64,000 nt of DNA from an uncultured Candidatus Saccharibacteria bacterium (GCA_964574495.1 CAZNNT010000001.1:5194-69193), one strand, 5' to 3'; numbered from the stretch's first letter, positions 25,684 through 57,573 are shown. A program made the numbers and translations. Notes: generated from the sequence alone by a model not told the origin.

Positions 25684-25689
25684 AAATAA

Positions 25690-31209: not shown

Positions 31210-31331
31210 ATCTATACTTTATTTTCTACCACACCGACGGGTCTTTGCAAATACTTGCATTATTTTTTATGTATGGTAATATGTGAACGAAACAACGGCA
31301 GATGAACTAACGCCGCACAAGGAGGCAAAAT

Positions 31332-31733
31332 ATGAAAATAGACATGAAGGCAGCAGTTGAACTCATCCGAAAATTAAGTTCTTCGCATAAACCAAAAAGC
31401 AAACAAAGAAAAACCAAAATTACCGGAGCCGCAAAAGAAATGTTGCCGCATATTAAAACTCTGCCGCAAAAAACAATAGAAAAATTTGTCAGAAAAATCG
31501 CCCTAACCGAACCATGGATAGAAATCCACAGCACTAGTATTGCGGTCGCGTACGGTAGTGAAGGACCGATGTTTTTTAGGTGCATCTTCTGTGGCCTTGC
31601 AACCGAGGCACATTTAAACGGTCATTCTATACCTGAATCCAAAATCCGGCATAAAAAAGATTGCCCGCAACGCATGGCCCTGGAAATCATCGGCTTAGTC
31701 CGACGTACACGAAACACGCATACACGAGTCTGA
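31332..31733 (+). CDS. Hypothetical small protein (133 aa) with a CxxC pair
   Basis: Strong SD ACAAGGAGGCAAAAT before the ATG. FRCIFCGL ... KKDCPQ cysteines. Its stop codon lies inside the solo REP-like palindrome. Alternative antisense ORFs lack an SD. Confidence 0.4.
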   Translation: MKIDMKAAVELIRKLSSSHKPKSKQRKTKITGAAKEMLPHIKTLPQKTIEKFVRKIALTEPWIEIHSTSIAVAYGSEGPMFFRCIFCGLATEAHLNGHSIPESKIRHKKDCPQRMALEIIGLVRRTRNTHTRV

Positions 31734-31739
31734 CTTGTG
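31723..31739. repeat. Solo REP-like 17-bp palindrome (CACGAGTCTGACTTGTG), one mismatch from the RAYT-flanking copies
   Basis: Matches CACAAGTC-T-GACTTGTG at 48531 and 49305 except A to G at position 4. Confidence 0.6.
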
Positions 31740-31772
31740 TATCACGCCTCGGCGATTTGTTGCCGGGGTTTT

Positions 31773-32891: not shown

Positions 32892-32897
32892 ATGAAT

Positions 32898-34574: not shown

Positions 34575-34583
34575 GCCGGCATT

Positions 34584-35699: not shown

Positions 35700-36747
35700 A
35701 GTGGCCTTTTTTTATAAGCGTCTCTGCAGGAATGTCAATTTTTGCCGCCTTGCCGATTATTTTTCGCAGGTATTTGGGTTCCAGACCCGTGCCCGGGCGT
35801 TTAATGGCCAGATTACTGCGGCTGAATATTTCGCCTTTTTTAATGTCGCGTAAAACAACAACGCTTTTTCTCGCAAGCGCTTTATAGGCCGATTCGCTTT
35901 TAGAAGGCCTTTTTTCGGCCGAACCCTTAAGTAAGGGAATCATTCTTATCTGCCTGACCATTTCTTTAAATTCTTCCGGCTCCAAAGACGCTTTATGGTC
36001 GGGTCCCGGCAGATTTTTGTTTAAAGTCAGATGCTTTTCAATAATTTCCGCGCCCATGGCCGCGGCCAAAACCGAAGCGAACGCGCCGAGCGTGTGGTCG
36101 GAATAACCGGCCAAAACCCCAAACTTTTTACGAAATGTCTCCAAAACCCGCAGATTGGCTTCCTCCGGCTTTGAGGGATAATCGGTGGTGCACTGCAAAA
36201 GAATAATTTTATTGTTTCCGGATTTTCTGATAGTTTTTACGGCTTCTTTAACTTCGGACATTGTTGCCATTCCGGTTGAAATTATCATCGGTTTTTTGAA
36301 GCGCGCGGCGTATTCCAAAACCGGCAGATTGGTCAGTTCCCCCGAGCCGAATTTAAAAGCCGTAGCGCCCAAAGCGCGGACTCTGTCTACGCTCGCGAAT
36401 CCGCCGTGGGGCGAGGAAAGAAAAATAATTTTTTCCCCGCGGCAATACTCCGCGACTTTTTTAAAATCCTCATCGCTTAATTCCAACCTTTTAATCATTT
36501 CCAGCTGATTCTCGCTTCTGCCGATATTCTTTTTTTGGTAAGAGGCCATTTTTCCCGCCGAAGTTACCACCTCTTCGGCTTTAAAATCCTGAAATTTTAC
36601 GGCATCCGCGCCGGCTTTTTTTGCCGCTTTAACGAGTTTCAGCGCCAGCGATAATTTACCGTTATGGTTTACTCCGGCTTCGGCTATCACGAAAACCGGC
36701 TGTCCCTGGCCGATGAACTTTCCGCCTATTTTGAGATTAGAAACCAT
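35692..36747 (-). CDS. N-acylneuraminate (nonulosonate) synthase, NeuB/LegI/PseI family with a C-terminal SAF domain
   Basis: VFVIAEAGVNHNGKLSLALKLVKAAKKAGADAVKFQ is the NeuB TIM-barrel N-terminus. The C-terminal ~60 aa are SAF/antifreeze-like (KKGEIFSRSNLAIKRPGTG). Confidence 0.85.
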   Translation of the reverse strand: MVSNLKIGGKFIGQGQPVFVIAEAGVNHNGKLSLALKLVKAAKKAGADAVKFQDFKAEEVVTSAGKMASYQKKNIGRSENQLEMIKRLELSDEDFKKVAEYCRGEKIIFLSSPHGGFASVDRVRALGATAFKFGSGELTNLPVLEYAARFKKPMIISTGMATMSEVKEAVKTIRKSGNNKIILLQCTTDYPSKPEEANLRVLETFRKKFGVLAGYSDHTLGAFASVLAAAMGAEIIEKHLTLNKNLPGPDHKASLEPEEFKEMVRQIRMIPLLKGSAEKRPSKSESAYKALARKSVVVLRDIKKGEIFSRSNLAIKRPGTGLEPKYLRKIIGKAAKIDIPAETLIKKGHYE

Positions 36748-37714
36748 GAAAATATGCCCTCTTTAAAGCTAAAGCGTTTTTTAAGTCCGAAGCGGATTCT
36801 TCCAAATTACTGTACCCCTTTTTCTCGCGCGTTTTTTTTATAAAAAACGCGAGTTCTTTGCGGTACATATCATTGCCTCCGGCTTTGATTTTAAAAATCT
36901 TTGTTCTCTTGTCGGTATGAAGTTTTATTTCATTATCTTCACTGCCTCGCCGCAGAATCTTCTCCCAGATTAGCGTCCCGCGGCTCCCCAAAATCTCGCA
37001 GTATCTTTTTCCCGGAACCTGAAAATAATCCTGATGAACCGAAATTATTTTGCCCTTTTCGGAAACAAAAAGACCTTCAGCCATGTCTTCGGATTTAATT
37101 TTCAGGTCTGAAATATTTCCGGAAAATCCTTTAACGAACCGCAATTTTTCTCCGAGAAGCCAGGCGGGATAATTTATCTCGTGAATTAAATCCAAAGTTA
37201 CGCCTCCGCCTTTTTTGGAGTCGCCGGAATAGCTTTTTCGGTAATCCCCCTTTCTCCAAGTTCTCAAATCCTTTCCGGCCGAAACGCGCATGGAAAGTAT
37301 GACGCTGATTTTTTTTTGCTTGATCATTTTTTTCAAAAATACGAGCGGCTTAAAAAATTGGAGGCAGTAAGCCACGAAAAACACCGGCTTTCGCTTTTTA
37401 ATTTCTTTTCGTATTTTGGCGATGTCTTTTAAAGAATGGGATATCGGTTTTTCCACGAAAATGCCCGCGGGATTATGACGGAGGCAGCGCAAAATCGTCG
37501 CGGCGTGCTTGTGAGTTTCGTTGGTTATGAAAAAAATATCCGGGCCGGCGGCGTAAAATTTTTTTTCCGAAGAAAAAAACCGGATATTCTTATCCGAACT
37601 TTTCACATCCTTTCTTTTGGTCAGCACGTTAAGGATTGAGCGCGGGAAAAGTTCGCGGATGTTGGCCGCGTGCCTCTGGCCGATTGAACCGTAACCGATA
37701 AGCCCCATGTTCAT
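36737..37714 (-). CDS. Gfo/Idh/MocA-family NAD(P)-dependent oxidoreductase
   Basis: MNMGLIGYGSIGQRHAANI Rossmann N-terminus and an EKP motif (FVEKPIS). Confidence 0.7.
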   Translation of the reverse strand: MNMGLIGYGSIGQRHAANIRELFPRSILNVLTKRKDVKSSDKNIRFFSSEKKFYAAGPDIFFITNETHKHAATILRCLRHNPAGIFVEKPISHSLKDIAKIRKEIKKRKPVFFVAYCLQFFKPLVFLKKMIKQKKISVILSMRVSAGKDLRTWRKGDYRKSYSGDSKKGGGVTLDLIHEINYPAWLLGEKLRFVKGFSGNISDLKIKSEDMAEGLFVSEKGKIISVHQDYFQVPGKRYCEILGSRGTLIWEKILRRGSEDNEIKLHTDKRTKIFKIKAGGNDMYRKELAFFIKKTREKKGYSNLEESASDLKNALALKRAYFHGF

Positions 37715-37718
37715 AAAA

Positions 37719-38453
37719 TTATTTTAAGTTCTTAATTCTATTTTTTATAACCCCTTTCTTTTTGTATAAAATTTCGGCCAGCGCCCAGTCCTCCGGCGCG
37801 TCCAAATCCACCGACCTCCATTTATCGCAAACCACGGCTTTGGTTTTTTTGGTCAAAACCGTTTTTTCTTTCAGAAGCGCGGATGTTTTAACAATGTAGA
37901 CAAAACAGCCGTTGAGGAGATAAGCGACATTCCAATCCTGAATGTTGGACGACTTGAATTTAACCTTATTTGCTAAAATGATATTTTTATTTTTATCCAG
38001 CCAATAAAGCCGGGGGTGGGTTGGAGCTACAGTTAAAACCGTCGTGGCGTCGGTTCGTTTCATCAAATCCCACGAGGCCTCAATGTCTCTATTTTCGCGA
38101 AGGGGCGAGGTGGTCTGCAAAATTACAATATGAGTCGGCTCATATTTTTCATCTTTTTTTAGACGTTTTAACAGAAACACTATGGCGTCAATCACCTGCG
38201 CCTTATCGCCCGCTAAACTTTTCGGCCTTAAATACGGAACTTCGGCGCCGTATTTTTTGGAAATGGAGGCGATTTTGGGCGAGTCGGTATCAACCACCAC
38301 GCGGTCAATCCATGGAATTTTTTTGGCCTGCAAAATCGTGTAAGCAATCAGCGGTTTGCCCAGAAAATTTCTTATGTTTTTATTGCGGATTCTTTTTGAA
38401 CCGGCTCTGGCGGGAATTACGGCTAAAACCGTTTTATTTTTCTTAATTTTCAT
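37719..38453 (-). CDS. Acylneuraminate cytidylyltransferase (CMP-nonulosonate synthetase, NeuA/LegF/PseF family)
   Basis: AVIPARAGSKRIRNKNIRNFLGKPLIAYTI is the canonical CTP_transf_3 N-terminus. 244 aa. Confidence 0.85.
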   Translation of the reverse strand: MKIKKNKTVLAVIPARAGSKRIRNKNIRNFLGKPLIAYTILQAKKIPWIDRVVVDTDSPKIASISKKYGAEVPYLRPKSLAGDKAQVIDAIVFLLKRLKKDEKYEPTHIVILQTTSPLRENRDIEASWDLMKRTDATTVLTVAPTHPRLYWLDKNKNIILANKVKFKSSNIQDWNVAYLLNGCFVYIVKTSALLKEKTVLTKKTKAVVCDKWRSVDLDAPEDWALAEILYKKKGVIKNRIKNLK

Positions 38454-38458
38454 GGCTA

Positions 38459-39763
38459 TTAAACCAGGCCTTTGAGCGGCGTTTGATTTTCGCCGGGATC
38501 TTCGCCTGCCGGACCGCCGTTAGACACTACTTTTTTCAACCGCCATAAATCGTCTTCTCCCTTTTTCCAAACATGGGGCATTCTGTATTTATCCATAATT
38601 TTCCAGAAATGCTCTTCGCTGATTCCCAGATAATCCAAAAAATTCTGAAAATATTTTTTAGGAAATTCGTGGTCGTATCTATGCACCAGCGAAACCGCCT
38701 CTTCCCTTGTGATGTGGCCGCATCTGATTTCACTGCAGGCCTCGCGGGTAGCCCGCCCGTAGCCGAATTTAATATAGGCCAAGAGCCAATGGAACGGGTC
38801 CAATTGGTCGTCAATGCTGCAGTGCTTGGTATAAGTGCCTTCGGTACGTTCGGTGTTGGCTTCAAATCCGGTGTGTTTTGAAGCGTAGTAAAAATTTTCC
38901 TGCGGCACCCAGAGTTTATAGTAAGACCACCAGTGCATCTGCAAATCAAGTTTTTTAATTTCATCAAGCGCCGGCGGACGGTAAAAATCAAACTGATTAT
39001 CTTTAAGCTCGGAAGCCGAAAAAATTCCCATTTTAAAACCTTCCGCGAGCAAAACATCCACTCCGGCTCCTTTAAAATAAAGCTCGTCCCAATCCTCGGG
39101 CGATTCATAGGGTTTGTTTTCGTTTTTAAACGACCCGCCGTATTCAATCTCGCCGTTTTCGCCGTAAAAAATCAGGGGGATTTTAAAGCGATGGGCCATC
39201 TGAAAAGCCAGCGCTTTTTGCCCGAAAGTGAACGGCTCCCACGGATCGCCCTTCAATTCAAAAGCCACGCGGGCAAGTTTGCGATGCAAAATTCCGTTCG
39301 GCCAAACGAGCACTCCGTCAAGCCCGCTCTGAATAAAATTAAAATAATTCTGCCAGCCGATATCGGTATAAATAAACGGCGCCCAGGTTACGGCTAAAGG
39401 ATGCATTCCGCGGGCTTTCAATTGATGCGTTACCAAAGCGCTGTCTTTTCCCGCGCTGCCCGGAACAATGACGTCAAAACCGCCGTTTTTAGACCGGTGT
39501 TTGTCCAGAAGCGCTTCCAATTCTTTTTCCCGTTTAGCCCAATCAATTACTCCGCCGAATTTTTTTTCGGCGTATTTGCAGGCGTTGCAGATGCCGTCGG
39601 CGTCAAACTCGGTTCTGGGACGCTGATTGGATATGACGCATTTTTTGCAAAATAAAATTTTTTGAGGCAGTAACTTCAGCTGCCGGTCCTTGGTCTTAAA
39701 TTCATACTGCCGATATTTTGTTTCATCTATGTTTAATTTAGGAAATTTATATTTCATGACCAA
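38459..39763 (-). CDS. N-acetyl sugar amidotransferase (PP-loop ATPase; PseA/WbpG/LfnA family)
   Basis: PP-loop-like VPGSAGKDS, an N-terminal Cys cluster (CKKC ... CNAC) and ~430 aa are typical of the LPS/flagellin-glycan amidotransferase family that makes acetamidino groups. Confidence 0.7.
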   Translation of the reverse strand: MVMKYKFPKLNIDETKYRQYEFKTKDRQLKLLPQKILFCKKCVISNQRPRTEFDADGICNACKYAEKKFGGVIDWAKREKELEALLDKHRSKNGGFDVIVPGSAGKDSALVTHQLKARGMHPLAVTWAPFIYTDIGWQNYFNFIQSGLDGVLVWPNGILHRKLARVAFELKGDPWEPFTFGQKALAFQMAHRFKIPLIFYGENGEIEYGGSFKNENKPYESPEDWDELYFKGAGVDVLLAEGFKMGIFSASELKDNQFDFYRPPALDEIKKLDLQMHWWSYYKLWVPQENFYYASKHTGFEANTERTEGTYTKHCSIDDQLDPFHWLLAYIKFGYGRATREACSEIRCGHITREEAVSLVHRYDHEFPKKYFQNFLDYLGISEEHFWKIMDKYRMPHVWKKGEDDLWRLKKVVSNGGPAGEDPGENQTPLKGLV

Positions 39764-39774
39764 TCCAAACTATA

Positions 39775-41307
39775 TCATAAATTACGCTCTTTGCAAAACG
39801 CTTCCAGAATTTTTAATCCGGCTTGTCCGCTTCGCTCCGGATGAAACTGGGTCGCAAAAATATTGTCTTTTTTTACCGCGGAGCAGAATCTTTGGCCTCC
39901 GTATTCCGAAACGGCGGCCACCACGCTTTGGTCTTCCGGTTCCGGATAATAAGAGTGCACGAAATAGACCATTTCATCGCCGCCGGCGTTTTGGCGCTTC
40001 GGATTTTTCAAATAATTCCATCCTATATGAGGCAGTTTATATCTGTTTAAATTAACTTCGGACGGTTTTTTAAAAGATACGACCCGGCCGCCAATCAAAT
40101 CAAGGCCTTTGTGCAAGCCGAACTCTTCGCTTTCCGAAAAAAGAAGCTGCATACCCAGACATATCCCTAAAAACGGTTTGCCGGATTTAACTTCTTCCAC
40201 AAGCGGCTCAATAAGACCCATATTTTTCAGGGCGTTCATTCCGTGCTCATACGCTCCGACTCCGGGCAAAACCAGACATTTGACATTTTTAAATTCCGAA
40301 GGACTTTCAATTACTTTTACGCTTTTTCCCAGACGCTCAAACGCTTTCAAAACGCTTTTTACATTATTAAGTTTGTAATTAATCACGCCGATGTCGCGCT
40401 TTTGGCCGATTTTTAACAAGTCCTCGCGGCTTTCCTTGCCTATGTCAATTCCCAAATTTTCGTCTCCCAGCTGCCTTAAAGTGAATCGATTATAGTCAAA
40501 GATGCCGGCCGCGGACGCCGACCCCGACTTTTTTTTCGCGTCCGAAACATTCCTCACCTTAATTCCGGCTTTCAAAAGCGCGGTTTTGACATCATCAATA
40601 TCCGCTTCTTTATAGTGAAAAATGGAGGCCGCGGCCACCGCGTCGGCGTCAGTCGTCTTGAAACAATCAACAAAATCCTCCGGTTTAGCCGCGCCGCCCG
40701 AAGCAATGACCGGAATTGAAACGGCTCCAGACACTTCTTTTACAAGCTCCAGATCAAGCCCGTTTTTAGCGCCTTCCATATCAACCGAGGTCAATAAAAT
40801 CTCGCCCGCGCCCAATTCTTCGCCTCTTTTGGCCCACGAAACGGCATTCAGGCCGGTTGTTTGCCGGCCGTTATCGGTGTAGGCCTCCCATTTGCCCGGC
40901 GATATTTTTTTGGCTTCAATTGAAAGCACGACGCACTGCGACCCGAAACGCTCCGAGGCCTCCTTAATCAATCGCGGATTTTTGGTGGCGGCCGTGTTTA
41001 CGGCCACCTTGTCGGCTCCGGCTCGCAATAAATTTTCTATGTCTTCAATCGTACGAACTCCGCCGCCGGCGGTAAAAGGAATAAATATTTTTTCGGTCGC
41101 GCGCTCCACAATATTTAAAAGATTCTTACGGCCGTATAAACTGGCGACGGTATCTAAATAAATCAATTCATCAGCGCCCTGCAAATAATATTCCTCGGCT
41201 ATGTCTTCCGGCCTGCCCATCACGCGCAAACATTCAAACTGGACGCCCTTAACCACATTGGGGCCCTTAATATCCAGTCGGGCAATGACGCGTATGTTTT
41301 TGTCCAT
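39775..41307 (-). CDS. Fused imidazole-glycerol-phosphate-synthase-like protein: HisF-like cyclase (N-terminal) + HisH-like glutamine amidotransferase (C-terminal); WbuZ/WbuY-type partner of the amidotransferase
   Basis: N-half: ARLDIKGPNVVKGVQFE ... FTAGGGVRTIEDIENLLRAGADKVAVNTAA (HisF barrel). C-half: class I GATase with GICLGMQLL (catalytic Cys) and FHPERS (His). Confidence 0.8.
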   Translation of the reverse strand: MDKNIRVIARLDIKGPNVVKGVQFECLRVMGRPEDIAEEYYLQGADELIYLDTVASLYGRKNLLNIVERATEKIFIPFTAGGGVRTIEDIENLLRAGADKVAVNTAATKNPRLIKEASERFGSQCVVLSIEAKKISPGKWEAYTDNGRQTTGLNAVSWAKRGEELGAGEILLTSVDMEGAKNGLDLELVKEVSGAVSIPVIASGGAAKPEDFVDCFKTTDADAVAAASIFHYKEADIDDVKTALLKAGIKVRNVSDAKKKSGSASAAGIFDYNRFTLRQLGDENLGIDIGKESREDLLKIGQKRDIGVINYKLNNVKSVLKAFERLGKSVKVIESPSEFKNVKCLVLPGVGAYEHGMNALKNMGLIEPLVEEVKSGKPFLGICLGMQLLFSESEEFGLHKGLDLIGGRVVSFKKPSEVNLNRYKLPHIGWNYLKNPKRQNAGGDEMVYFVHSYYPEPEDQSVVAAVSEYGGQRFCSAVKKDNIFATQFHPERSGQAGLKILEAFCKERNL

Positions 41308-41322
41308 TGGCTTGCCTTACGT

Positions 41323-43101
41323 TTATTTTTTGATAATAAGAGTTCTATTAAGCAGTAAGGCATCCAAGTCGGATTCAATAAAAGTGTGCCAGGCGTCTTC
41401 GGCGTTCCTGACAATCGGCTCGCCGTGCAGATTAAACGAGGTGTTTAAGAGCGCTCCCACACCGGTCTGTTTTTCAAATTCCTGAATCAAGGCGTAATAT
41501 TCGGGGTTGGACTCTTCTTCCAAAATCTGGGGACGCGCCGTAAAATCAGCCGGATGAATCGCGGCTTTCAGGTGTTCTTGCCCTAAAAGCGTAGTATCAA
41601 AAGCCATTGTCATAAAGGGCGACTTTAAATTTTTGGGATTAACCAGGTAATCATTCGCGCGATAATCAAGAATTGAAGGCGTAAAAGGCATCCAGAAATC
41701 ACGGTATTTTATTTTGTCGTTGATTAAACGGATGTTGTCAAAATTGGATGGATGGCAAAGAATGGAACGATTGCCCAGAGCTCTCGCCCCAAACTCGCCC
41801 CTCCCCGCGCATCTTGCCACAATTTTGTTTTTAGCGAGCAGGTCCGCGATTTGCTTATTTGACGCTTCGTAAACTATCTCGTAACCGGCAATATCATATT
41901 TCGCGATAAGTTTTTTTATTTCGTCATCGGTTATAGCGTAGCCCAGATAAACATTGGTTGGCGTTTTTGGAGCAATCCCCTTTTCCGCAAAAAGCGCGAA
42001 TGCCGCCCCTATCGCCGTTGATTCATCCCCGCCCGATGCCGGCACAAAAAAATAATTCAATCCGTCAATTTCGGCAAGCGTCTTATTGGCCTTAACATTC
42101 ATAGCGAGCCCTCCGCTAAAAACAAGCGAGTCAACCCGCAGATGGTTTAAAACATTTTTCGCCCAGACGGCTAAAACCTCTTCCACCCATTTCTGGAGGC
42201 CGCCGGCAATGCCGTCAAAACGGACGCCTTCCAGCTTGTCTTTGAAATAAAAATACATGTCCGACGGCTTTTTATTCCATTTAAAATCCAGGCCGTCGGC
42301 GACCAGGGTTTCCTTAAAGACATCGTAGGCCGGCTTTAAAACATAGTCCTTGGCGTAGGGCGCTAAACCCATAACTTTATATTCGTGCTCAAAAGGCCTC
42401 ATTCCGAGAAGTAAAGTAATATAGCGATAGATTCTTGCCAGATTGCACATGGCGCTTCCATGAATTTTTTCAAGTTTCCCGTTTTCGGCGACATAAATAG
42501 AGGCGTTTTCGCCGTCGCCCCAGCCGTCGGCCGTAATTACGCCGATTCTTTTTGAGCGCTCCAAGGGCGAGGCGTAATAAGCGTAACCGGCGTGAGCCAA
42601 ATGATGATTGACGAATATAACCTTTCCTGGATCAATGCCCAATTGCTTGACGGCAACTTTGATTCTTTCCTTATTAAATGCCTCGCTCCATTTTTCTTTC
42701 GGCTCGGTTTTCATAAAGCCGAAATCGTAATATTCTTTTTCGGGAAAATTAAAACGCTTTTCCTGCATCACGTTTTCCCAAAAAGACGATTCTTTATTTT
42801 CAAGTAAAACCGGCTTCCAGTATTCATTCATTTCGCGAAGGTAATCTGAAACGCGAAATCTGGTGATTCTTTTTATTTTTAACTGCGCGGGGTCCGTAAT
42901 CTGGCAGGTATAGGCGACAAAATCCACCTCTTCCGGCTTTACGCCCGTAAGACGAAAGGCCTCTTCCACGCTTTTGAAGGGATAGCCAACTTCGTTTTTG
43001 GACCTCTCAATCCGCTCTTCGGAAGAGGCGTATAAAACTTCGCCGTCTTTTATCAGCGCGGCTGTCGCGTTATGGTCCTCATTTATTCCCAGGATAATCA
43101 T
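41323..43101 (-). CDS. Carbamoyltransferase (NodU/CmcH/TobZ family)
   Basis: MIILGINEDHNATAALIKDGEVLYASSEERIERSKN is the Kae1/YgjD-like N-terminus of Carbam_trans_N. The C-terminal domain is Carbam_trans_C-like. 592 aa. Confidence 0.8.
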   Translation of the reverse strand: MIILGINEDHNATAALIKDGEVLYASSEERIERSKNEVGYPFKSVEEAFRLTGVKPEEVDFVAYTCQITDPAQLKIKRITRFRVSDYLREMNEYWKPVLLENKESSFWENVMQEKRFNFPEKEYYDFGFMKTEPKEKWSEAFNKERIKVAVKQLGIDPGKVIFVNHHLAHAGYAYYASPLERSKRIGVITADGWGDGENASIYVAENGKLEKIHGSAMCNLARIYRYITLLLGMRPFEHEYKVMGLAPYAKDYVLKPAYDVFKETLVADGLDFKWNKKPSDMYFYFKDKLEGVRFDGIAGGLQKWVEEVLAVWAKNVLNHLRVDSLVFSGGLAMNVKANKTLAEIDGLNYFFVPASGGDESTAIGAAFALFAEKGIAPKTPTNVYLGYAITDDEIKKLIAKYDIAGYEIVYEASNKQIADLLAKNKIVARCAGRGEFGARALGNRSILCHPSNFDNIRLINDKIKYRDFWMPFTPSILDYRANDYLVNPKNLKSPFMTMAFDTTLLGQEHLKAAIHPADFTARPQILEEESNPEYYALIQEFEKQTGVGALLNTSFNLHGEPIVRNAEDAWHTFIESDLDALLLNRTLIIKK

Positions 43102-43124: not shown

Positions 43125-45701
43125 TTGATGGACGGCGGTCAATATGATATTATTTTGGGCATGGTAAAAATTGAAGAACTAAAACGTTGGCAGTACGGGT
43201 TATTCGCGGCTCTGGTCATGCTTGCGGGATTTGTGATTTTATTTTGGCCGGAAATTACCGGAAAAAACTTGCCGCCGATAGGAAACATAGGCCTATACCA
43301 CTACATATATTTCACGGCTACGAGTTTTTTCATAAATATCCTTAATATGCTGCCGAACTGGTGGCCGGCCTATAATTCGGGGTACCCCATAAACCTTACT
43401 TTGGACGGCTTTCTTAATCCCTTTTTTCTTTTGGCGCTAAAATTCATTCCTCCGTTTTTAGCCAACAATTTGGCGATTATTTTTCTTTTCGTCATAAACG
43501 GCTTGAGTTTTTACGCGCTGGCGAGAGCGCTGAAATTAAGCAGGACGGCAGGCCTTATCAGCGCGATTTCATACGCTTTTAGCGGCGTTATTGTTCACTT
43601 CTCGGTGGTAACCACGATTGCCGCCTTAATGCCTTTTCTGCCGCTTTCTTTTTTATGCTGTCTTAAAATTTTTGAAGGCCGGACAAAATGGTTCTGGGCG
43701 TGGCTGGCTCTGATGACTTATTCCTGGTTCGGGGGATGGTCTGAAATGATTGTTTACGCCTTAACTGCCGTGGGATTTTTTGCGGTATATTTAATATTCA
43801 AAAACAGGAAGTCGGAAAATTTCAGTTTTTATTATCCCCTGCTTTTTTTCGGCGCCATTCCCTTGAGTATGCTGATTTTATCTCCGTGGTTTTTATCAAT
43901 TTTGCATTTTGTTTCTTACTCCGAAAGAGCCGGGGGAACGGGAGAGGCGGGCAAATACATGCCGACGACTCTCTCTCATCTTCTTCATATGCTAAATCCC
44001 CGCATTTCCGTTCTTTACGGCGACCTCTTGCCGTTTTTCTCTTTAGGCAATCATCCCTATTTTTTGTTTTTTGGCACTTTGCCGTTTCTGTTGGCGCTCT
44101 CGGCCTTTTTTATAAAAAATCTCAAGGAAAATAAAAACCTGTTATTTTTTATGGGATTGTCCGCCGGCGCCATTTTTATGACCGTGAACAACTCGCCTCT
44201 GTTCTGGCTGTTTCATCAGATTCCGGTGCTGAAGTGGTTTGGAGGATACTGGAAATGGTCGTTTGTCATTGTTTTTTCGCTGGCAATGCTGGCCGGCTAC
44301 GGTTTTGACAACATTGGAGATTTTTTCCGGCGTAAATTTTCTAAACGCGCGATTGCGGTTTTGTGGATATTTTTTGCCGTAGCTTTAATCGGCGCCGGAA
44401 CTATCGCCATTTTTGACCGCAAAATCCAATCAACGATTACCTCTTACGGCGTGGCTCACTACCAGAACGCAAGCGGTCGGGTTTTTGTCCGGCCGGCGGC
44501 CTATTACGAAAGGACGGTAAAAGAAATAGCCGAAAGTTTAACCTACAATTTCTCTTTAAAAAACAAGTGGATTATTCTTATGACCGTTTTGTGGTTTATG
44601 ACTCTGCTTTATTTCACCCTCGGCAGGAAGTATGGCGAAATAAACCTCCAAAGGTGGAAGGCCTTTGCGATTCTGGTGGCTTTTGCCGGAAGCGTTCTTC
44701 CTTGGTACGGATTTCTAAAGGGGCCCCCCATATCTTATCTTAGAAATGAACCCGAAACGGCAAAATTTCTGCACTCAATCGAGGCCTACGCTTCAAACAA
44801 ATTGCCGCTTAGCGGCCCGTCAAAAGATCTGGTGCCATATAGAATTTTTCTTTATGTGCCGGAACAATATGTCGCTGAAATTTCCGAAAAATACGGCAGT
44901 AAATTCGCTTTTGGAGAAGCCAATTACGATTTATTTAAAGAAATGATGGATGATAACGCCCATGTATTTTTCAATTTTGACACTTTTCAAAACCATCAAA
45001 CGCTCTCGCTCCAGCGCCTTATGGATGTTTATTTTTTAGTCAGGCGCCAGGACTTAAACTACCAAAACCGCTTTACGGCTACTACGCCTTTTGAAAAATT
45101 CGTGGAGGATTTTTCAAAAGAAAAAAATATGCGGCTTTTGGGGGCGTTAAACGTAAAATACATTCTGTCGTTTTTTGAATTAAAAACGGGGATGAAGCCG
45201 ATTTTTACGAATTACATCAGGGGTATAGTTCCGATTTATATTTATAAAAACCCTTATTTTATGCCGAGATGGCATTTTGCCGATAAAATTTTGTGGGCGG
45301 ATGGCGGCAAGGAGGACCCTCTAAAGACGCTTGACGGCGTAGAAAATCTTTCATCTATAACCCTCCTTGAAACGCAGACCTCGGGCGATCCGGCGCTCCT
45401 GACTAAATCAAATCCGAACGACAAAATAGAATTGGAACTTTATACCGCGGGCGCCTTACGTTTAAAAACAAAAACGGAAAATTACCGCTTTTTGGTATTT
45501 TCTGAAAGCCGTTTTCCCGACTTTTGGCAAGCGACGATTAACGGGCAAAAGACCCCGATTTATACCGCCAATTATCTTTATCAGGCGATTTTGGTCCCTC
45601 CCGGAGAAAACATCGTTGAATTTCGCTATCCTAAACTAATGGAGCAAAGCGCCATTGCGCTAAATAAACGCATTGAAAGCTTGCTTAAAATAAATAATTA
45701 A
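43125..45701 (+). CDS. YfhO-family polytopic membrane protein (putative GT-C-type glycosyltransferase)
   Basis: 858 aa, about 13 N-terminal TM helices followed by a large C-terminal extracytoplasmic domain. This matches YfhO size and architecture. The start is 24 nt after the divergent carbamoyltransferase gene. Confidence 0.5.
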   Translation: MMDGGQYDIILGMVKIEELKRWQYGLFAALVMLAGFVILFWPEITGKNLPPIGNIGLYHYIYFTATSFFINILNMLPNWWPAYNSGYPINLTLDGFLNPFFLLALKFIPPFLANNLAIIFLFVINGLSFYALARALKLSRTAGLISAISYAFSGVIVHFSVVTTIAALMPFLPLSFLCCLKIFEGRTKWFWAWLALMTYSWFGGWSEMIVYALTAVGFFAVYLIFKNRKSENFSFYYPLLFFGAIPLSMLILSPWFLSILHFVSYSERAGGTGEAGKYMPTTLSHLLHMLNPRISVLYGDLLPFFSLGNHPYFLFFGTLPFLLALSAFFIKNLKENKNLLFFMGLSAGAIFMTVNNSPLFWLFHQIPVLKWFGGYWKWSFVIVFSLAMLAGYGFDNIGDFFRRKFSKRAIAVLWIFFAVALIGAGTIAIFDRKIQSTITSYGVAHYQNASGRVFVRPAAYYERTVKEIAESLTYNFSLKNKWIILMTVLWFMTLLYFTLGRKYGEINLQRWKAFAILVAFAGSVLPWYGFLKGPPISYLRNEPETAKFLHSIEAYASNKLPLSGPSKDLVPYRIFLYVPEQYVAEISEKYGSKFAFGEANYDLFKEMMDDNAHVFFNFDTFQNHQTLSLQRLMDVYFLVRRQDLNYQNRFTATTPFEKFVEDFSKEKNMRLLGALNVKYILSFFELKTGMKPIFTNYIRGIVPIYIYKNPYFMPRWHFADKILWADGGKEDPLKTLDGVENLSSITLLETQTSGDPALLTKSNPNDKIELELYTAGALRLKTKTENYRFLVFSESRFPDFWQATINGQKTPIYTANYLYQAILVPPGENIVEFRYPKLMEQSAIALNKRIESLLKINN

Positions 45702-47228
45702 ATGGCAAAGGCCTGTATTTTATTACAACGTAGGTTTGCTTATGTCGGCCACGCTATCGCCGTTATGCTTCAAGAAAAATACGGCGTTCGGGATTTTTGC
45801 GGCTATGTATATTTAAGAGACAGTTTGAATTTTTTAAAAACGCAAAAAGACATAAACTACTCTGAATTGATTTTAGACGAGGATATACATAACCAATATA
45901 AAAGCGAGCCGCTTGACCCCGATTATTTGCGTTTGCTTGAAAAAAAATACGGCATACCGAATCTTTGGCCCTATATAGAAATAGACCGGGTGGCGCGTCA
46001 CGGACAACTGGTAAGAGAATACCCGTATGATTCCCCCAAATATTCCCACGAAGAAATGATGAAAATAGTGCAGGTAAAAGCCAGGTCTATGATTGATTTT
46101 TTAGAAAGGCAAAAACCTGATTTTATAATTTTTTCGGTGGTCGGCGACATCGCGACTATGCTTATGTACCATGTGGCCAAAAAAATGGGCATAAAAACCC
46201 TACTTATACAAACCGCGCGCGTGGGAAACAGATATTCGCTCACCCAAAACTACGAAGATTTAAATTACATCAATGACGCTTTTTTAACCCTTCAAAAAAA
46301 TGCCGTAAGCACTTCGGAAGAAATAAAAATGGCGGAGAAATTTTTAGAGGACTTCAGATCCAAACCCCGCCCCCACTCTCCGACCGATTTGCCCAAATAT
46401 CGGCCGATCGGCAGAAGGAAGCAATTTAAATTCTTGCGGCCGGAAAATATTGTTCAATCCATCAAATGGAATTTTAAAATAGTTTACGACTACCTCAAAA
46501 ATCCGCATAAAGACGATTTCAACGCGATAAAACCGTGGCATCATTTCATTGACAGAATTAAAAGAAAATTCAGGGTGCTCGTCGGTTTTAACGATTTATA
46601 CGACGCCCCCGATTTAAACGAGGAGTTCGCCTTCTTTCCTCTGCACCTTGAGCCGGAAATGTCTATTTCGCTTTTTGCCCCCTTCTACACCGACCAGCTC
46701 TGGCTGACAAAACAAATCGCGCGCTCGCTACCGATAACCCATAAACTATATATCAAAGAACATCCGGCAATGTTCGGCTATAGGACGCGAAATTTCTATA
46801 AAGAATTAAAAAAGATACCGAATGTCAAACTTATAGACCCGTCTTTAGAAAGCTTTCCGTTAACCAAAAACGCGAAACTTATAATCACCATCAACGGCAC
46901 TGCCGGCTGGGAGGGTATTTTATTGAAAAAACCAGTAATAACTTTCGGCAATGTGTTTTACAACGCCCTGCCAATGGTGAAAAAATGCGTTTCCATCAGC
47001 GATTTACCTTATATAGTCAAGGAACAGCTTGAAAATTTTCATCATGACGACCCGGCGCTTATAAATCTTATCGCCGCGATTTTCAGAGAAAGCTTTGATT
47101 TGGATTTAGTTCAAATTTGGGACATTGAAGGAGGAGCCAACCAGCAAAAAAAACAAGAAGAGGTGGCGCCTCTCGTTGATTATCTGGCAAAGAAACTAAA
47201 TTTAACTCCCGAATCGGCGCGTTTATAA
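45702..47228 (+). CDS. Capsule_synth-family protein (KpsS/KpsC-like retaining ulosonic-acid transferase fold)
   Basis: FFPLHLEPE matches the conserved F-P-L-Q-V-E-x-D motif of KpsS/KpsC (PF05159). LYIKEHPAM resembles the family's K-x-HP motif. The start abuts the YfhO stop. Confidence 0.5.
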   Translation: MAKACILLQRRFAYVGHAIAVMLQEKYGVRDFCGYVYLRDSLNFLKTQKDINYSELILDEDIHNQYKSEPLDPDYLRLLEKKYGIPNLWPYIEIDRVARHGQLVREYPYDSPKYSHEEMMKIVQVKARSMIDFLERQKPDFIIFSVVGDIATMLMYHVAKKMGIKTLLIQTARVGNRYSLTQNYEDLNYINDAFLTLQKNAVSTSEEIKMAEKFLEDFRSKPRPHSPTDLPKYRPIGRRKQFKFLRPENIVQSIKWNFKIVYDYLKNPHKDDFNAIKPWHHFIDRIKRKFRVLVGFNDLYDAPDLNEEFAFFPLHLEPEMSISLFAPFYTDQLWLTKQIARSLPITHKLYIKEHPAMFGYRTRNFYKELKKIPNVKLIDPSLESFPLTKNAKLIITINGTAGWEGILLKKPVITFGNVFYNALPMVKKCVSISDLPYIVKEQLENFHHDDPALINLIAAIFRESFDLDLVQIWDIEGGANQQKKQEEVAPLVDYLAKKLNLTPESARL

Positions 47229-47232: not shown

Positions 47233-47991
47233 ATGGAACGGGAATATCCGGATTTAACGCAAAAAATATCAGGCATACAAGGATGCGTCTCAACAAAAGA
47301 AGCCGTATTTCTTTATGAAGCGGCAAGAAATTGCGGAAATGGCGTAATAGTGGAACTCGGCTCGTGGAAGGGCAAATCAACAATCTGCCTCGGGCTTGGT
47401 TCAAAAAACGGACGGGGCGTCAAGGTCTACGCCGTTGACCCGCATAGCGGGAGTCCGGACCAAAAGGGATTTGAAAAAGAAAACACATTTGAAGAATTCA
47501 AGAAAAATATTAAAAACGCGGGGCTTGAGAATATAGTTGAACCGATTGTTTCCACCTCTTTTGAAGCCGCAAAAACATGGGACAAGCTGGCGGGCCTTAT
47601 ATTCGTGGACGCGAATTATCACGACTATGAAAACACAAAAAAAGATTTTTTCCAGTGGTCAAAATATTTAATTGACGGCGGCATCTACGCGCTCCATAAC
47701 ACCGTGCCGTCGGTTTCCGGAATCTTGGAAGGAATTCCGCTTCACGGATGCGAAGCGCCCCGCAAATTTATGAATGATTTTATTTTTGGCTCTAAAAATT
47801 TCAAAGTGTTGAAAATCCAAGGCACGATAACCGCGATACAAAAATTAGAAAAATTGTCGCTTTTAGACAAAATAAAAAATAGGGCCGCCGAAATCAAAAG
47901 CGCCCTATCTTACTCAAACCATAAAATCTATTTAGCCCTAGCTTCCCTGCCGCCATCAATAAAAAAACCAATAAAGACCCTCTTCAACTAG
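47233..47991 (+). CDS. Class I SAM-dependent methyltransferase (Methyltransf_24-like, sugar/macrolide O-methyltransferase type)
   Basis: VIVELGSWKGKST (motif I) and VDANYHDYENT (acidic motif) resemble TylF/MycF-like glycan O-MTases. 252 aa. Confidence 0.6.
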   Translation: MEREYPDLTQKISGIQGCVSTKEAVFLYEAARNCGNGVIVELGSWKGKSTICLGLGSKNGRGVKVYAVDPHSGSPDQKGFEKENTFEEFKKNIKNAGLENIVEPIVSTSFEAAKTWDKLAGLIFVDANYHDYENTKKDFFQWSKYLIDGGIYALHNTVPSVSGILEGIPLHGCEAPRKFMNDFIFGSKNFKVLKIQGTITAIQKLEKLSLLDKIKNRAAEIKSALSYSNHKIYLALASLPPSIKKPIKTLFN

Positions 47992-48530: not shown

Positions 48531-49321
48531 CACAAGTCTGACTTGTGGTTTACCAATCTTCTAAAAGAAACTGCGCTACGTCTTCTCTCTTTTCCGCGTG
48601 CGATATCAACATGTCGCGCGCGGCTTGTTTGAAATCGGCGTCTGGCAAACCAAGATCTGCGAATACTTTTGCGTCAATAATTGGCGACAATTTACCAAAT
48701 GCCGCTGTTTGAAAACTGGAAAATGAGTAAGTTTTCGCCCATTCCCATGCTTTGTTAAATTCTTTGACAGCTTTTGCGAAACCGCCGGGATAAAGCTCAA
48801 ATACGTTTTTCACAACAATATAAGCCAGAATATAGTTTAGATCTGCGTCATCATGTATAGTACGACTTTTATAGGAACCCTGAAAAATGCTTCCTTTTTC
48901 ATTGTATTTTTCATTAAAAGACAGGGTCATGCTCCCGCATAAACGTTGTAAAAACTTAGAAATTCCTCCCTCATGAATTTCGTAAAGCAACAAATGAAAA
49001 TGATTTGGCATTAGTGTCCACGCCAATACCGCCGCCAGAGGATCACGCTCTGGCCAATGTTCCGACCGCGAAAAAAGTGGCAAATCTTGTTCATCTTTTG
49101 TCCAATTGCGATTTTGAAAATCATCATTAAGAAGATAAAGCGTTTTGACATAACGCCAATGATCGGCTTTATCGCGTACAATTTCCATTCCGCGCGCACC
49201 GCGTTTTACAACATGCACAACCGAACCAACCGAAAATGGTTCTACTCTCATATTTACATATGTAACATTATTCTATACATACACAAGTCAGACTTGTGGT
49301 GGTCCACAAGTCTGACTTGTG
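48531..49321 (-). mobile_element. REP/RAYT-type unit: HUH Y1 transposase gene flanked by 17-bp palindromic REP-like sequences (one downstream, an inverted pair upstream)
   Basis: CACAAGTCTGACTTGTG at 48531-48547, CACAAGTCAGACTTGTG at 49282-49298 and CACAAGTCTGACTTGTG at 49305-49321 bracket ORF 48550..49251. A fourth, diverged copy lies at 31723. Confidence 0.65.
48550..49251 (-). CDS. HUH-motif Y1 transposase-like protein (REP-associated tyrosine transposase/IS200-TnpA-like)
   Basis: LMPNHFHLLL is an HUH motif (H-hydrophobic-H in a hydrophobic strand). The downstream tyrosine-rich segment DADLNYILAYIVVKN resembles the Y1 catalytic-Tyr helix. 233 aa. The gene appears AT-rich and is flanked by palindromes. 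Confidence 0.55.
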   Translation of the reverse strand: MRVEPFSVGSVVHVVKRGARGMEIVRDKADHWRYVKTLYLLNDDFQNRNWTKDEQDLPLFSRSEHWPERDPLAAVLAWTLMPNHFHLLLYEIHEGGISKFLQRLCGSMTLSFNEKYNEKGSIFQGSYKSRTIHDDADLNYILAYIVVKNVFELYPGGFAKAVKEFNKAWEWAKTYSFSSFQTAAFGKLSPIIDAKVFADLGLPDADFKQAARDMLISHAEKREDVAQFLLEDW

Positions 49322-50502
49322 GGAAGATTTAAAAGCTTTTCGTTAATTCTTAAAATCTGCTTGCGGTAATTATGGTCGTCATCCGCAAGGCGCAAATAGC
49401 AATTACGCGACAACTCGCTCCTTAATTCGTGATTTGAGCCGAGTTCTTCAATACGGCGGGCGAAACTTTCGTCATCATTGTCTTTGAAATATACCGCGCT
49501 TTTTTGCGACACCCATTCAAGTCCTCCTCCCCCCGGAAGAATTGACGGCAGGCCGAAAGTCATTGCTTCAAGTAAAGAAATGGAAGTCATATCTCCTCGC
49601 CATTTCGGCTGAATAAAAATATCGGCATTTTTATAAAAATCGTAGACCTTTTCTTTTTCCACCCATCCGGGCATAAAAACATATTTCTCTAAATCCAAAT
49701 CGCGAACCATCTTTTTTAATTTTTCTTCCTCGGGTCCGGTTCCACCCAGAATCAGTTTAAAATCACTTTTATTCTTCACTTTGGAAAACGCCGACAAAAG
49801 CAGTTCAAACCCTTTTCCGGGAACCATCCGGCCCGAGTAAAATAAATTTATAACGCCGCCTTTTTTATTTCTCTCTTGATATGAATTTTCAGCGATATTT
49901 AAATCGCGCATCATTTTTTTATAATCGAAACAATCGCCCACAATCAAACTTTTGTCTTTTGTTTTCAAACCAAAATCGGAATAGGCCTTTTTTAAAAACG
50001 GGTTGGTAAAAGTCATTAAATCCAGACCATCCGCAAACGGCATGCCGATATATTTTTCGATAATCCACCGGAGTTTCTTTTTTAAAACGCGCAAATACGC
50101 ACCCTTTTCCATTTTAAATTCCGAAAAAGCGGATGTATTTTGAGGCCATGAGAGCAGTTCGCGGTTAAAGCAGGCCACAACCGGAACTCTGCCTCCGAAT
50201 TTACGATAAACGGAGCCCGCGTAAAAATACTGGCCGTCTATGTAAAAAATATCGGCTTCGCCCGAATAAGCCCTTAAAACCTTAAAAACGCCCTTCTGAA
50301 TGCCAAAAAGCCGCCTTGACTTTATGTCTTTTTCAATCGTATTATAAGGTAAGTTGGAATAATGATTCGCGCCTGAAAAAACAGTGATGACATTAACGTC
50401 GGAGCCCAAATCCAGAAAAGCCCGCGCCCTTAAATCAAGATCGGCCACCGAGCCGCCGGCGCGCTCAAAATTGAGCTTTGAGGTAACAAAATAAATTTTC
50501 AT
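49288..50502 (-). CDS. Family 1 (GT4-type) glycosyltransferase
   Basis: C-terminal GT-B domain with the ExFGxxxxEAM-like motif (SISLLEAMTFGLPSI). 404 aa. The last ~11 codons are encoded by the REP pair. Confidence 0.8.
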   Translation of the reverse strand: MKIYFVTSKLNFERAGGSVADLDLRARAFLDLGSDVNVITVFSGANHYSNLPYNTIEKDIKSRRLFGIQKGVFKVLRAYSGEADIFYIDGQYFYAGSVYRKFGGRVPVVACFNRELLSWPQNTSAFSEFKMEKGAYLRVLKKKLRWIIEKYIGMPFADGLDLMTFTNPFLKKAYSDFGLKTKDKSLIVGDCFDYKKMMRDLNIAENSYQERNKKGGVINLFYSGRMVPGKGFELLLSAFSKVKNKSDFKLILGGTGPEEEKLKKMVRDLDLEKYVFMPGWVEKEKVYDFYKNADIFIQPKWRGDMTSISLLEAMTFGLPSILPGGGGLEWVSQKSAVYFKDNDDESFARRIEELGSNHELRSELSRNCYLRLADDDHNYRKQILRINEKLLNLPTSQTCGPPQV

Positions 50503-51807: not shown

Positions 51808-51808
51808 T

Positions 51809-57535: not shown

Positions 57536-57573
57536 ATATGTTGTTTATACCCTTTATAGCAATTATATTCCGG

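Follow-up and report, generated by a model that had tools for sequence, protein, structure and literature searches.

A candidate KpsS1-type nonulosonate glycosyltransferase beside a legionaminic-type gene cluster in a Saccharibacteria genome

Gene clusters for CMP-activated nonulosonic acids (NulOs) raise the question of which enzyme transfers the sugar, and to what acceptor. In the 64,000-nucleotide stretch of Candidatus Saccharibacteria DNA analysed here (the window), such a cluster lies divergent to a gene for a 508-aa protein with a Capsule_synth domain. We provide evidence, from sequence comparison and gene context, that this protein is probably a cytoplasmic CMP-NulO-dependent glycosyltransferase of the KpsS1/Gtr59 kind (GT118-like, in the clan of GT99, GT107 and GT140).

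The locus and its divergent nonulosonic acid cluster

The first-pass annotation had placed YfhO, Capsule_synth and Methyltransf_24 genes in a contiguous row divergent from the NulO cluster, an arrangement that open reading frames and Pfam matches confirm. The three genes form a plus-strand unit with gaps of 0 and 4 nt:

43125..45701, plus strand: YfhO-family GT-C membrane glycosyltransferase (PF09586; 858 codons from TTG)
45702..47228, plus strand: candidate CMP-nonulosonate glycosyltransferase, KpsS1/Gtr59-type, GT118-like (PF05159; 508 aa, soluble, GT-B-like)
46632..46658, plus strand: FFPLHLEPE motif of the 508-aa protein (aa 311-319)
46755..46766, plus strand: KEHP motif of the 508-aa protein (K352, H354, P355), aligning with the CMP-phosphate-binding HP motif
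47233..47991, plus strand: class I SAM-dependent methyltransferase, Methyltransf_24 (PF13578; 252 aa)
49288..50502, minus strand: GT4 glycosyltransferase (PF00534)

The methyltransferase gene, starting 4 nt past the 508-aa gene, encodes a clear family member (PF13578, E 3.8e-19, 69.9 bits). The same family occurs downstream in five related loci, and an FkbM-type methyltransferase takes its place in at least ten others. The GT4 enzyme likely builds the acceptor glycan; its homologues, found in 58 of the 80 listed related loci, are the most conserved non-NulO neighbours of the 508-aa family. In the divergent intergenic region (23-59 nt), a promoter scan found sites no more often than in shuffled controls.

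The divergent cluster was assigned from Pfam and NCBIfam matches:

29376..43101, minus strand: 11-gene cluster for a CMP-activated legionaminic-type NulO
29376-30182, minus strand: SDR
30157-31209, minus strand: 4,6-dehydratase
31773-32891, minus strand: DegT aminotransferase
32898-34574, minus strand: PHP/ATP-grasp fusion
34584-35699, minus strand: NeuC-type 2-epimerase (TIGR03568, 321 bits, cutoff 236)
35692-36747, minus strand: NeuB-type synthase (TIGR03569, 427 bits, cutoff 399.65)
36737-37714, minus strand: GFO/IDH/MocA oxidoreductase
37719-38453, minus strand: CMP-cytidylyltransferase (CTP_transf_3, 88 bits)
38459-39763, minus strand: WbuX
39775-41307, minus strand: HisF-HisH fusion
41323-43101, minus strand: carbamoyltransferase

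The core of a legionaminic acid (Leg)-type pathway is present, comprising a NeuC/LegG-type hydrolysing 2-epimerase, a Neu/Leg-type synthase and a CMP-synthetase. The synthase scores 295 bits against the PseI model, under its cutoff of 340 (NCBIfam), and the cytidylyltransferase finds its best matches in PseF/NeuA-type models. Because a 4,6-dehydratase and an aminotransferase accompany the core enzymes, we favour the Leg over the Neu pathway. A LegH/PglD-type N-acetyltransferase was not found, there being no hexapeptide or GNAT acetyltransferase within 29376-43101, and a PHP and ATP-grasp fusion occupies its place. The predicted product is a CMP-activated legionaminic-type NulO with acetamidino and carbamoyl modification, and possibly an aminoacyl group too.

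Motifs and relatives of the 508-aa protein

The HMM search against PF05159 named in the first-pass annotation gave a significant match (E 7.6e-11, 42.5 bits, cutoff 20), covering aa 306-421 only. FFPLHLEPE had been read as the equivalent of the KpsC/KpsS motif, and two alignments agree: phmmer places PLHLEPEMSI on PGQVESDASI of KpsC, and hhalign places the motif on LQVYNDSQ of Escherichia coli KpsS. H315 and E319 fall on the Q and D of the QxxxD nucleophile motif of KpsC, KpsS and WbbB. Among 84 CPR homologues, P318 is invariant and E319 is kept in 83; 57 have H and 22 have Q at position 315, with no correlation between this residue and the type of neighbouring NulO synthase; [H/Q]xxxE holds throughout 278 family sequences. 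The catalytic residues of KpsC/KpsS, whose loss was to speak against the assignment, are conserved in part: the HP motif is kept (KEHP aligns with KVHP of KpsC and KHHP of KpsS; K352 in 84 and H354 in 83 of the 84), whereas the Asp of QxxxD is replaced by Glu. Searching with the family profile gave E 4e-14 for KpsC (GT107) and E 3.6e-6 for WbbB (GT99), the two proteins that are also the best matches by structure.

A closer relative is KpsS1 of Acinetobacter baumannii, a KpsS-like protein characterised biochemically as a retaining Pse5Ac7Ac transferase and the founding member of GT118 (Walklett 2024, as cited in PMC12887879). Glu132 of its YE pair is the proposed general base, and 30% local identity to E. 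coli KpsS is reported (PMC12887879). Our comparison sequence was an A. baumannii K-locus ORF (L086:11647-13089, 480 aa), flanked by wzx and wzy with PseB/C/F/G/I upstream, which we take to be kpsS1-type from its PseBCFGI-wzx-ORF-wzy context, its Y131-E132 and its 30% local identity to E. coli KpsS, not from an accession. The 508-aa protein aligns with it at 26% identity over 306 aa (BLASTP, E 2e-25) and over 424 columns in hhalign (probability 99.94%, E 1.1e-36). The two share the nucleophile-position motif (PLH315LEPE319 in the window, PIH299FHPE303 in A. baumannii) and a K-[DE]-H motif at the CMP site (KEH354P and KDH338K), and we infer a catalytic role in KpsS1 for the residues of both motifs. 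They are also similar in size, soluble, GT-B-like, alignable at full length and encoded beside a NulO module, as are the paralogues KpsS2-5; a Wzx flippase gene adjoins the KpsS1-type gene, as in related CPR loci.

There are differences as well. The proposed general base of KpsS1 has no counterpart, F144-S145 of the window protein aligning with Y131-E132 (BLASTP), and across the CPR family Glu is not conserved there. A. baumannii has KDHK where the window has KEHP, and its host is a capsulated Gram-negative, unlike the CPR-type bacterium here. Additionally, a Pse pathway stands beside KpsS1, in contrast to the Leg/Neu-type pathway (NeuC and NeuB) of the window. We had considered the Asp-to-Glu change to be a CPR-specific innovation and dropped this idea, as the A. 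baumannii kpsS1-type protein has the same HxxxE. Judged by its sequence, the 508-aa protein is a KpsS1-type homologue and not a KpsC or KpsS orthologue.

Other systems show parts of the same pattern. The proteins Gtr59, KpsS1 and KpsS2 (PF05159) adjoin Pse, Aci and 8-epi-Leg modules, and were predicted by Kenyon et al. in 2015 to add NulOs (PMC4487303). As described in print, the Gtr59 proteins of A. baumannii KL12/KL63, E. coli O108 (Orf10) and Photobacterium profundum resemble the 508-aa protein in their PF05159 domain, their adjacent NulO module and their predicted transfer of NulOs, Leg-type donors included, to a growing repeat unit (PMC4487303). The assignment of Aci, Leg-type or 8-epi-Leg sugars to Gtr59 is itself a prediction (PMC4487303). 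In Tannerella forsythia, Tanf_01245 and TFUB4_00887 of the BFO_1060 family are genetically implicated as transferases of Pse/Leg derivatives (PMC5420450). These share an adjacent NulO cluster and methyltransferase and the HP motif with the window protein, and there, too, the NulO caps a glycan, a lipid-assembled protein O-glycan; however, they are TagB-like, and NF046086 reaches only 25 bits (cutoff 200) over aa 349-415 of the 508-aa protein. The retaining beta-Kdo transferases KpsC/KpsS (GT107), WbbB (GT99) and KrkA (GT140) are more distant: they have QxxxD and not [H/Q]xxxE, use a Kdo donor to make capsule linkers or O-antigen caps in diderms, unlike the window context, and have N-terminal domains that cannot be aligned by sequence, hhalign spanning 79-178 columns.

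Gene neighbourhood, predicted reaction and alternatives

The 508-aa protein is one of a large family, so far uncharacterised, that is present in 364 species genomes. Patescibacteria-type MAGs are the source of all 80 listed loci, with further relatives in DPANN, Omnitrophota, Planctomycetota and Proteobacteria. Of the 41 loci whose flanks are complete, 37 have one or more NulO hallmark genes within 10 kb, usually in the divergent arrangement seen in the window, and the 80 listed loci include 45 with a CMP-cytidylyltransferase and 36 with NeuB. The association extends to distant members, with a NulO biosynthesis module beside the family gene in L084, L085, L087 and L088: L084 lies inside a ptm-like Leg cluster, L085, from a DPANN archaeon, keeps the NulO association, and the other two are a Mariluticola plasmid and a Klebsiella plasmid, whose members are named hypothetical in RefSeq. 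The 84 CPR homologues form a star-like neighbour-joining tree that tracks NulO type only loosely. The ORFs scanned in the window include no further gene of sialyltransferase-like, Maf or TagB-like type. Homology, fold and a strongly conserved neighbourhood support the earlier suggestion of a NulO transferase; its caveat that no such activity had been established for the fold is outdated by KpsS1, going by the published citation of that work, and by the 2015 PF05159 prediction. As KpsS1 is a characterised retaining Pse transferase and predictions date from 2015, the activity is not new for the enzyme type.

We propose the following sequence of events. The divergent operon would make a CMP-activated legionaminic-type 5,7-diamino-nonulosonate, an assignment at family level. 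Its CMP moiety may be bound by the C-terminal Rossmann domain through K352-E-H354-P355, with [H/Q]315-x-x-x-E319 serving where KpsC and WbbB use Q-x-x-x-D, and Glu319 probably acting as the covalent nucleophile of a retaining double displacement. An undecaprenyl-linked oligosaccharide from the neighbouring GT4 and GT2 enzymes is the likeliest acceptor, and the adjacent methyltransferase may then methylate the glycan. The glycan would next be flipped: Wzx or a PglK-like ABC exporter is encoded beside the transferase gene in related loci (Wzx or an ABC exporter in 36 of 79), and the window has no homologue of these flippases, nor was any flippase or initiating transferase identified in it. Membrane enzymes might finally attach or decorate the glycan outside the cell, the candidates being the co-transcribed YfhO-like GT-C protein and a Wzy_C-TPR protein (13085-15322).

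Resemblance to KpsS and KpsC could instead point to a NulO polymerase or initiator-extender that makes a poly-nonulosonate chain or linker for ABC export. The protein's best match by structure, KpsC, catalyses polymerisation (PMC10148158), and four related loci have two divergent paralogues around an ABC exporter, recalling KpsS, KpsC and KpsMT. The window, however, has one copy and no ABC exporter, and the ABC proteins of the related loci are fused ABC_membrane and ABC_tran half-transporters of PglK/MsbA and not KpsMT type. Most related loci carry Wzx, GT4 and GT2, typical of repeat-unit or oligosaccharide assembly, and the closest characterised relative, KpsS1, adds a single Pse residue per K unit (PMC4487303), so that we regard polymerisation as unlikely. 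Foldseek ranks UDP-GlcNAc 2-epimerases first, and Pfam gives a weak Epimerase_2 match (E 0.002); a GT-B-fold sugar-nucleotide epimerase, hydrolase or non-catalytic partner in NulO biosynthesis is, in our judgement, quite improbable.

We give very little credence to a true GT107 orthologue transferring beta-Kdo from CMP-Kdo. PF05159 and the top rank of KpsC, among PDB sequences as well as by fold, would fit it, but the Asp of QxxxD is Glu and the Gln mostly His, the NCBIfam KpsS model scores 19 bits (cutoff 600), and in hhalign the protein is far nearer the kpsS1-type protein than KpsS. The genes nearby encode NeuB-type synthases and NeuA/PseF-type cytidylyltransferases, not KdsA/KdsB, with no Kdo-8-P synthase among the scanned ORFs of the 64-kb window, and the hosts are monoderm-type CPR and DPANN. 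A TagB/TagF-like transferase of CDP-glycerol or CDP-ribitol phosphate is similarly remote. TagD-like cytidylyltransferases do lie in the window (25690-26178 and 16994-17500), and the C terminus is weakly similar to Bacillus 'CDP-glycerol glycerophosphotransferase family' proteins, besides the 25-bit similarity to the BFO_1060 family; the CDP-glycerol version was rejected; a PF04464 match together with a CDP-glycerol supply was not found.

A KpsS1-type NulO transferase remains our preferred reading, and that a PF05159 protein beside a NulO cluster acts in this way is a concept already known. Several points count against it: the general base proposed for KpsS1 is missing, identity to the KpsS1-type protein is only 26%, no flippase or initiating transferase was identified in the window, and the donor here seems to be of Leg/Neu type, its C5 substituent equatorial, whereas Kdo-like retaining transferases are argued not to take such donors easily (PMC12887879). 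More tentatively, and with considerable doubt, the KpsS1-like clade of CPR might transfer Leg-type NulOs by Glu-nucleophile double displacement to form beta-linked Leg surface caps, as a widespread trait of CPR and DPANN. If so, Leg transfer by this clade would contradict the prediction of PMC12887879 on Neu/Leg-type sugars, and ultrasmall episymbionts would widely share a hitherto unreported trait, sialic-acid-like surface decoration by a single dedicated family of enzymes.

Leg and Pse transferases are still few, and as of 2020 no cell-surface Leg transferase was known (PMC7439481). The assignment offers a usable annotation, of the KpsS1/GT118 kind, for thousands of 'hypothetical proteins', and suggests that NulO glycans are common on the cell surfaces of CPR and DPANN, organisms that no paper in the literature searched ties to nonulosonic acids. 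Additionally, the family's natural variants, Pse-linked and Leg-linked, would allow a test of how the enzyme clan handles different C5 stereochemistry.

The YfhO-like membrane protein

The neighbouring membrane protein was earlier suggested to be a glycosyltransferase, and PF09586 and its domain layout mark it as a genuine GT-C-fold enzyme. The Pfam match is marginal for the window protein (29.7 bits, cutoff 28.5), but 23 of 24 homologues match PF09586 (best E 2.8e-35). The N-terminal 520 aa contain about 11 TM helices and precede a beta-rich C-terminal domain of about 330 aa, the GT-C arrangement of a multi-TM N-terminal module and an extracytoplasmic C-terminal domain. ATG 43128 or ATG 43161 is a likelier start than the TTG, for a length of 846-858 aa. 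No PDB sequence was matched by the subfamily profile.

YfhO of Bacillus subtilis, Listeria and Staphylococcus aureus is a GT-C enzyme that transfers GlcNAc from C55-P-GlcNAc to LTA/WTA (PMC5836110, PMC8035078). The window protein shares PF09586, the GT-C fold and the large C-terminal extracytoplasmic domain with these proteins, but is very divergent and lacks an adjacent CsbB/GtcA pair: no GtrA/GtcA family match was seen in the window, and neither GT2 gene (24925-25683 and 56831-57535) adjoins the YfhO-like gene, the second pairing with a PMT_2 GT-C. The YfhO link is confined to a single lineage, 6 of the 80 listed related loci, and the protein is most likely a lineage-restricted accessory. 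Unlike known YfhO proteins, it falls within a small subfamily, confined to CPR, that co-localizes with the putative NulO transferase.

A candidate nonulosonate transferase and its putative donor pathway

The 508-aa product of 45702-47228 is a PF05159 protein encoded beside genes for a CMP-activated nonulosonic acid (NulO), and we regard it as a candidate KpsS1-like CMP-NulO glycosyltransferase. The first-pass annotation had described three plus-strand genes divergent from a CMP-nonulosonate cluster; all three reading frames are present, as is the divergence, with minus-strand NulO genes running from 43101 down to 29376:

43125-45701, plus strand: YfhO-family protein, 858 aa (PF09586, 29.7 bits, just above the cutoff of 28.5)
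45702-47228, plus strand: 508-aa transferase candidate (PF05159 Capsule_synth, E = 7.6e-11, 42.5 bits, cutoff 20)
47233-47991, plus strand: methyltransferase (PF13578; Pfam)
29376-43101, minus strand: NulO cluster of 11 genes (Pfam, NCBIfam)
41323-43101, minus strand: NodU/CmcH-type carbamoyltransferase, heading the NulO operon
32898-34574, minus strand: fusion of a PHP domain and an ATP-grasp domain, 557 aa (NF009402, 326 bits)

The plus-strand genes are separated by gaps of 0 and 4 nt, and thus probably form one operon. The FFPLHLEPE motif, from which a relationship to capsule synthesis enzymes had been proposed, occupies residues 311-319, and the HMM search suggested as a check was positive for PF05159, with the Pfam match spanning only residues 306-421.

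From 43101 downward, the cluster encodes the carbamoyltransferase, a HisF-HisH fusion, a WbuX amidotransferase, a CMP-cytidylyltransferase, a GFO/IDH/MocA oxidoreductase, a NeuB-type synthase, a NeuC-type hydrolysing 2-epimerase, the PHP and ATP-grasp fusion, a DegT aminotransferase, a Polysacc_synt_2 4,6-dehydratase and a PtmA-like SDR. The synthase exceeds the TIGR03569 cutoff (427 bits) and reaches only 295 bits, under the cutoff, with the PseI model; the epimerase exceeds the cutoff of TIGR03568. Judged by the Campylobacter leg/ptm genes, this set points to a legionaminic-type 5,7-diamino-nonulosonate with an acetamidino group. The NodU/CmcH-type carbamoyltransferase, homologues of which occur in 8-9 related CPR loci, suggests that the sugar is O-carbamoylated. 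As no acetyltransferase was found in the NulO cluster, the nonulosonate may be N-aminoacylated. The PHP and ATP-grasp fusion gene lies between those for the aminotransferase and the NeuC-like epimerase, which is the usual N-acetyltransferase slot of Leg and Pse clusters.

The observations comprise membership of the families, the fold, the conserved motifs and the synteny; on these we propose a scheme in which the donor would be a Leg-type CMP-NulO, the acceptor would be lipid-linked and Glu319 would act as the nucleophile. Methylation by the enzyme encoded downstream of the transferase may follow, and the YfhO-like protein and a Wzy_C-TPR protein (13085-15322) may have roles in the same glycan pathway.

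Distribution of the family and its gene neighbourhood

A search of 1.84 billion cluster representatives yielded 8502 matching clusters with a threshold of E<=1e-3, and 603 with E<=1e-30; full-length relatives (~500 aa) reach down to ~27% identity. Close relatives (50-78% identity) are all unnamed, and the labelled ones come from Patescibacteria/CPR MAGs, including Giovannoni-, Niyogi-, Falkow- and Harrisonbacteria. Scanning one genome per GTDB species yielded 364 genomes with a relative; the 80 listed loci are from CPR-type MAGs, with a few doubtful submitter labels. One family cluster contains a DPANN Micrarchaeota protein, and a more distant branch occurs in Omnitrophota, Planctomycetota and Desulfarculus MAGs. 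Judged by these relatives, the source of the window is very probably a CPR bacterium. In four loci (L023, L054, L066 and L074), two divergent transferase paralogues flank a fused ABC exporter; in the tree, these second copies branch together as a deep clade of their own.

Comparison of the window genes with the 80 related loci by tblastn and de novo ORF clustering recovered CMP-cytidylyltransferase in 45, NeuB in 36, WbuX in 27, GT4 in 58 and DegT in 46. Where at least 8 kb was available on each side of the transferase gene (41 loci), one or more NulO hallmark genes were found in 37 loci, and NeuB or the cytidylyltransferase in 34. For a 20-kb neighbourhood in a ~1 Mb genome, we infer that chance would produce such co-location in only a few percent of cases. 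The commonest layout is that of the window, with NulO genes upstream of the transferase on the opposite strand, and the transferase gene is most often flanked directly by a Wzx flippase or fused ABC exporter gene and, on its other side, by an FkbM or Methyltransf_24 methyltransferase gene. TagD-like cytidylyltransferase genes were found in only 2 of the 80 loci.

The neighbouring synthases are of the window's Neu/Leg type in 11 loci and true PseI in 6 (472 bits), with intermediate clades also present; thus, the transferase family accompanies several kinds of NulO. Two distant members keep the association. In the bacterial locus L084 a duplicated ptm-like Leg cluster surrounds the relative, and in the DPANN Micrarchaeota locus L085 it lies beside GFO, CMP-transferase, SDR, HisF/H and NeuB genes. 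The L084 cluster also holds a TagB/F-like (PF04464) gene.

Relation to Kdo transferases and KpsS1

With the 508-aa protein as the phmmer query, KpsC was the only match among PDB sequences (E = 8e-5), aligning PLHLEPEMSI with PGQVESDASI and KEHP with KVHP. A family profile built from 122 diverse members strengthened the match to KpsC (E = 4e-14) and added WbbB (GT99) at E = 3.6e-6. The top Foldseek matches were 2-epimerases with low TM scores, and were uninformative. Retaining Kdo transferases have three defining features (PMC10148158, PMC12887879): a QXXXD motif, the Asp of which forms a covalent sugar adduct, an HP motif located at the phosphate of CMP, and a Glu that serves as general base. 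The family retains the HP motif, and its counterpart of QXXXD is [H/Q]xxxE: Glu319 is conserved in 83 of 84 CPR homologues, of which 57 have His and 22 have Gln at position 315. In hhalign comparison with E. coli KpsS, the sequence of which was taken from an E. coli K5 genome, H315 and E319 align with the Q and D of LQVYND.

Kenyon et al. 2015 (PMC4487303) described the PF05159 proteins Gtr59, KpsS1 and KpsS2 as always adjoining NulO modules, with examples from Acinetobacter, E. coli O108 and O165, Photobacterium (8-epi-Leg), Bacteroides fragilis and Sphingobium, and predicted that they act as retaining NulO transferases. According to work cited in PMC12887879, KpsS1 has since been characterised and is the founder of GT118. 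In T. forsythia, TagB-like transferases for Pse and Leg have a genetic precedent (PMC5420450). Thus, the window protein is a taxonomically remote addition to a known enzyme type.

Relatives in cultured organisms were found by tblastn of the window protein against a plasmid collection. A Mariluticola halotolerans plasmid encodes a full-length relative (27% identity, 91% coverage) directly 3' of genes for an ABC transporter, pseB, pseC, pseF, pseG, a NeuB-family synthase and a methyltransferase, with GT4 directly downstream. On a Klebsiella plasmid the relative follows pseBCFGI and a wzx-like gene and precedes a gene for a DUF6418 protein. An A. baumannii chromosome carries a 480-aa matching ORF that follows PseB, PseC, PseF, PseG and PseI genes, all over NCBIfam cutoffs, and sits between genes for 410-aa and 326-aa membrane proteins, which is a K-locus layout with a kpsS gene. 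The ORF has Tyr131-Glu132 and is locally 30% identical to E. coli KpsS, two features that are reported for KpsS1 (PMC12887879). Two A. baumannii records of the plasmid collection, NZ_CP077849.1 and NZ_CP104448.1 (3.7-4.1 Mb), are evidently misfiled chromosomes, with the K locus near 1.22-1.25 Mb and no annotation for it in the PLSDB table.

The window protein matches this A. baumannii ORF at E = 2e-25 over 306 residues, and the family profile does so over 424 columns (E = 1.1e-36); the matches to KpsS (178 columns, E = 1e-8) and to KpsC (79 columns) are far weaker. PIHFHPE and KDHK are present in the A. baumannii protein; thus, the HxxxE signature also occurs in proteins of the KpsS1 type and is not a peculiarity of CPR. 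Glu132, the proposed general base of KpsS1, is not kept in the window protein, where F144-S145 takes its place. A search of the accessible literature library for a link between CPR or DPANN and NulO found none. Three aspects may be new: how widely the family occurs in CPR and DPANN, its Leg-type setting, with a bearing on a published C5-stereochemistry prediction, and the absence of the YE general base.

The YfhO-like protein and other glycan genes in the window

The N-terminal 520 residues of the YfhO-like protein contain ~11 hydrophobic helices, and the C-terminal domain is beta-rich; PF09586 is matched by 23 of 24 homologues. It belongs to a small CPR-only subfamily (48 matches). The pairing is rare when seen from the transferase (6 of 80 loci) but looks, on weak evidence, common from the YfhO side, where at least nine homologues seemingly share a contig with a transferase homologue. 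Characterised YfhO proteins act outside the cell, where they transfer a sugar from C55-P-sugar onto teichoic acids (PMC5836110, PMC8035078). Further features of the window are as follows:

13085-15322, minus strand: Wzy_C-TPR protein, 745 aa, with a Wzy_C (O-antigen ligase / PglL-like) domain, 13 predicted TM segments and C-terminal TPR repeats
15394-29266, minus strand: second sugar-modification block
48550-49251, minus strand: IS200/Y1-transposase-like ORF (PF01797, 34.5 bits)
50542-53918, plus strand: NDP-hexose C-methyltransferase (Methyltransf_13/14), DegT aminotransferase and GDP-mannose 4,6-dehydratase
56831-63262 region, minus strand: GT2 (233 aa) then PMT_2 GT-C (461 aa)
63219-63956: ORF running off the window end

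The Wzy_C-TPR protein could serve the glycan island as a ligase or O-oligosaccharyltransferase. The second block, which may make a branched or heptose-type sugar, encodes a radical SAM protein, 2-3 small cytidylyltransferase-like proteins (one fused to a PfkB kinase), a TPP-dependent E1 alpha/beta pair, DegT, epimerases, a SIS-domain protein, GT2, a methyltransferase and a SemiSWEET-like membrane protein. The IS200/Y1-like ORF, inserted between the methyltransferase and GT4 genes, has a 13-bp GC-rich hairpin near its 3' end (stem-loop 48594-48623) and is also present in a Logan contig of the same strain (L001). Homologues of the 50542-53918 genes recur in 20-33 of the 80 related loci. GT2 and PMT_2 form a classic polyprenyl-P-sugar/GT-C pair, near which two 6-TM proteins (552-560 aa) have no family match, and the ORF at the window end matches the 'unk592' family, found in 37 related loci.
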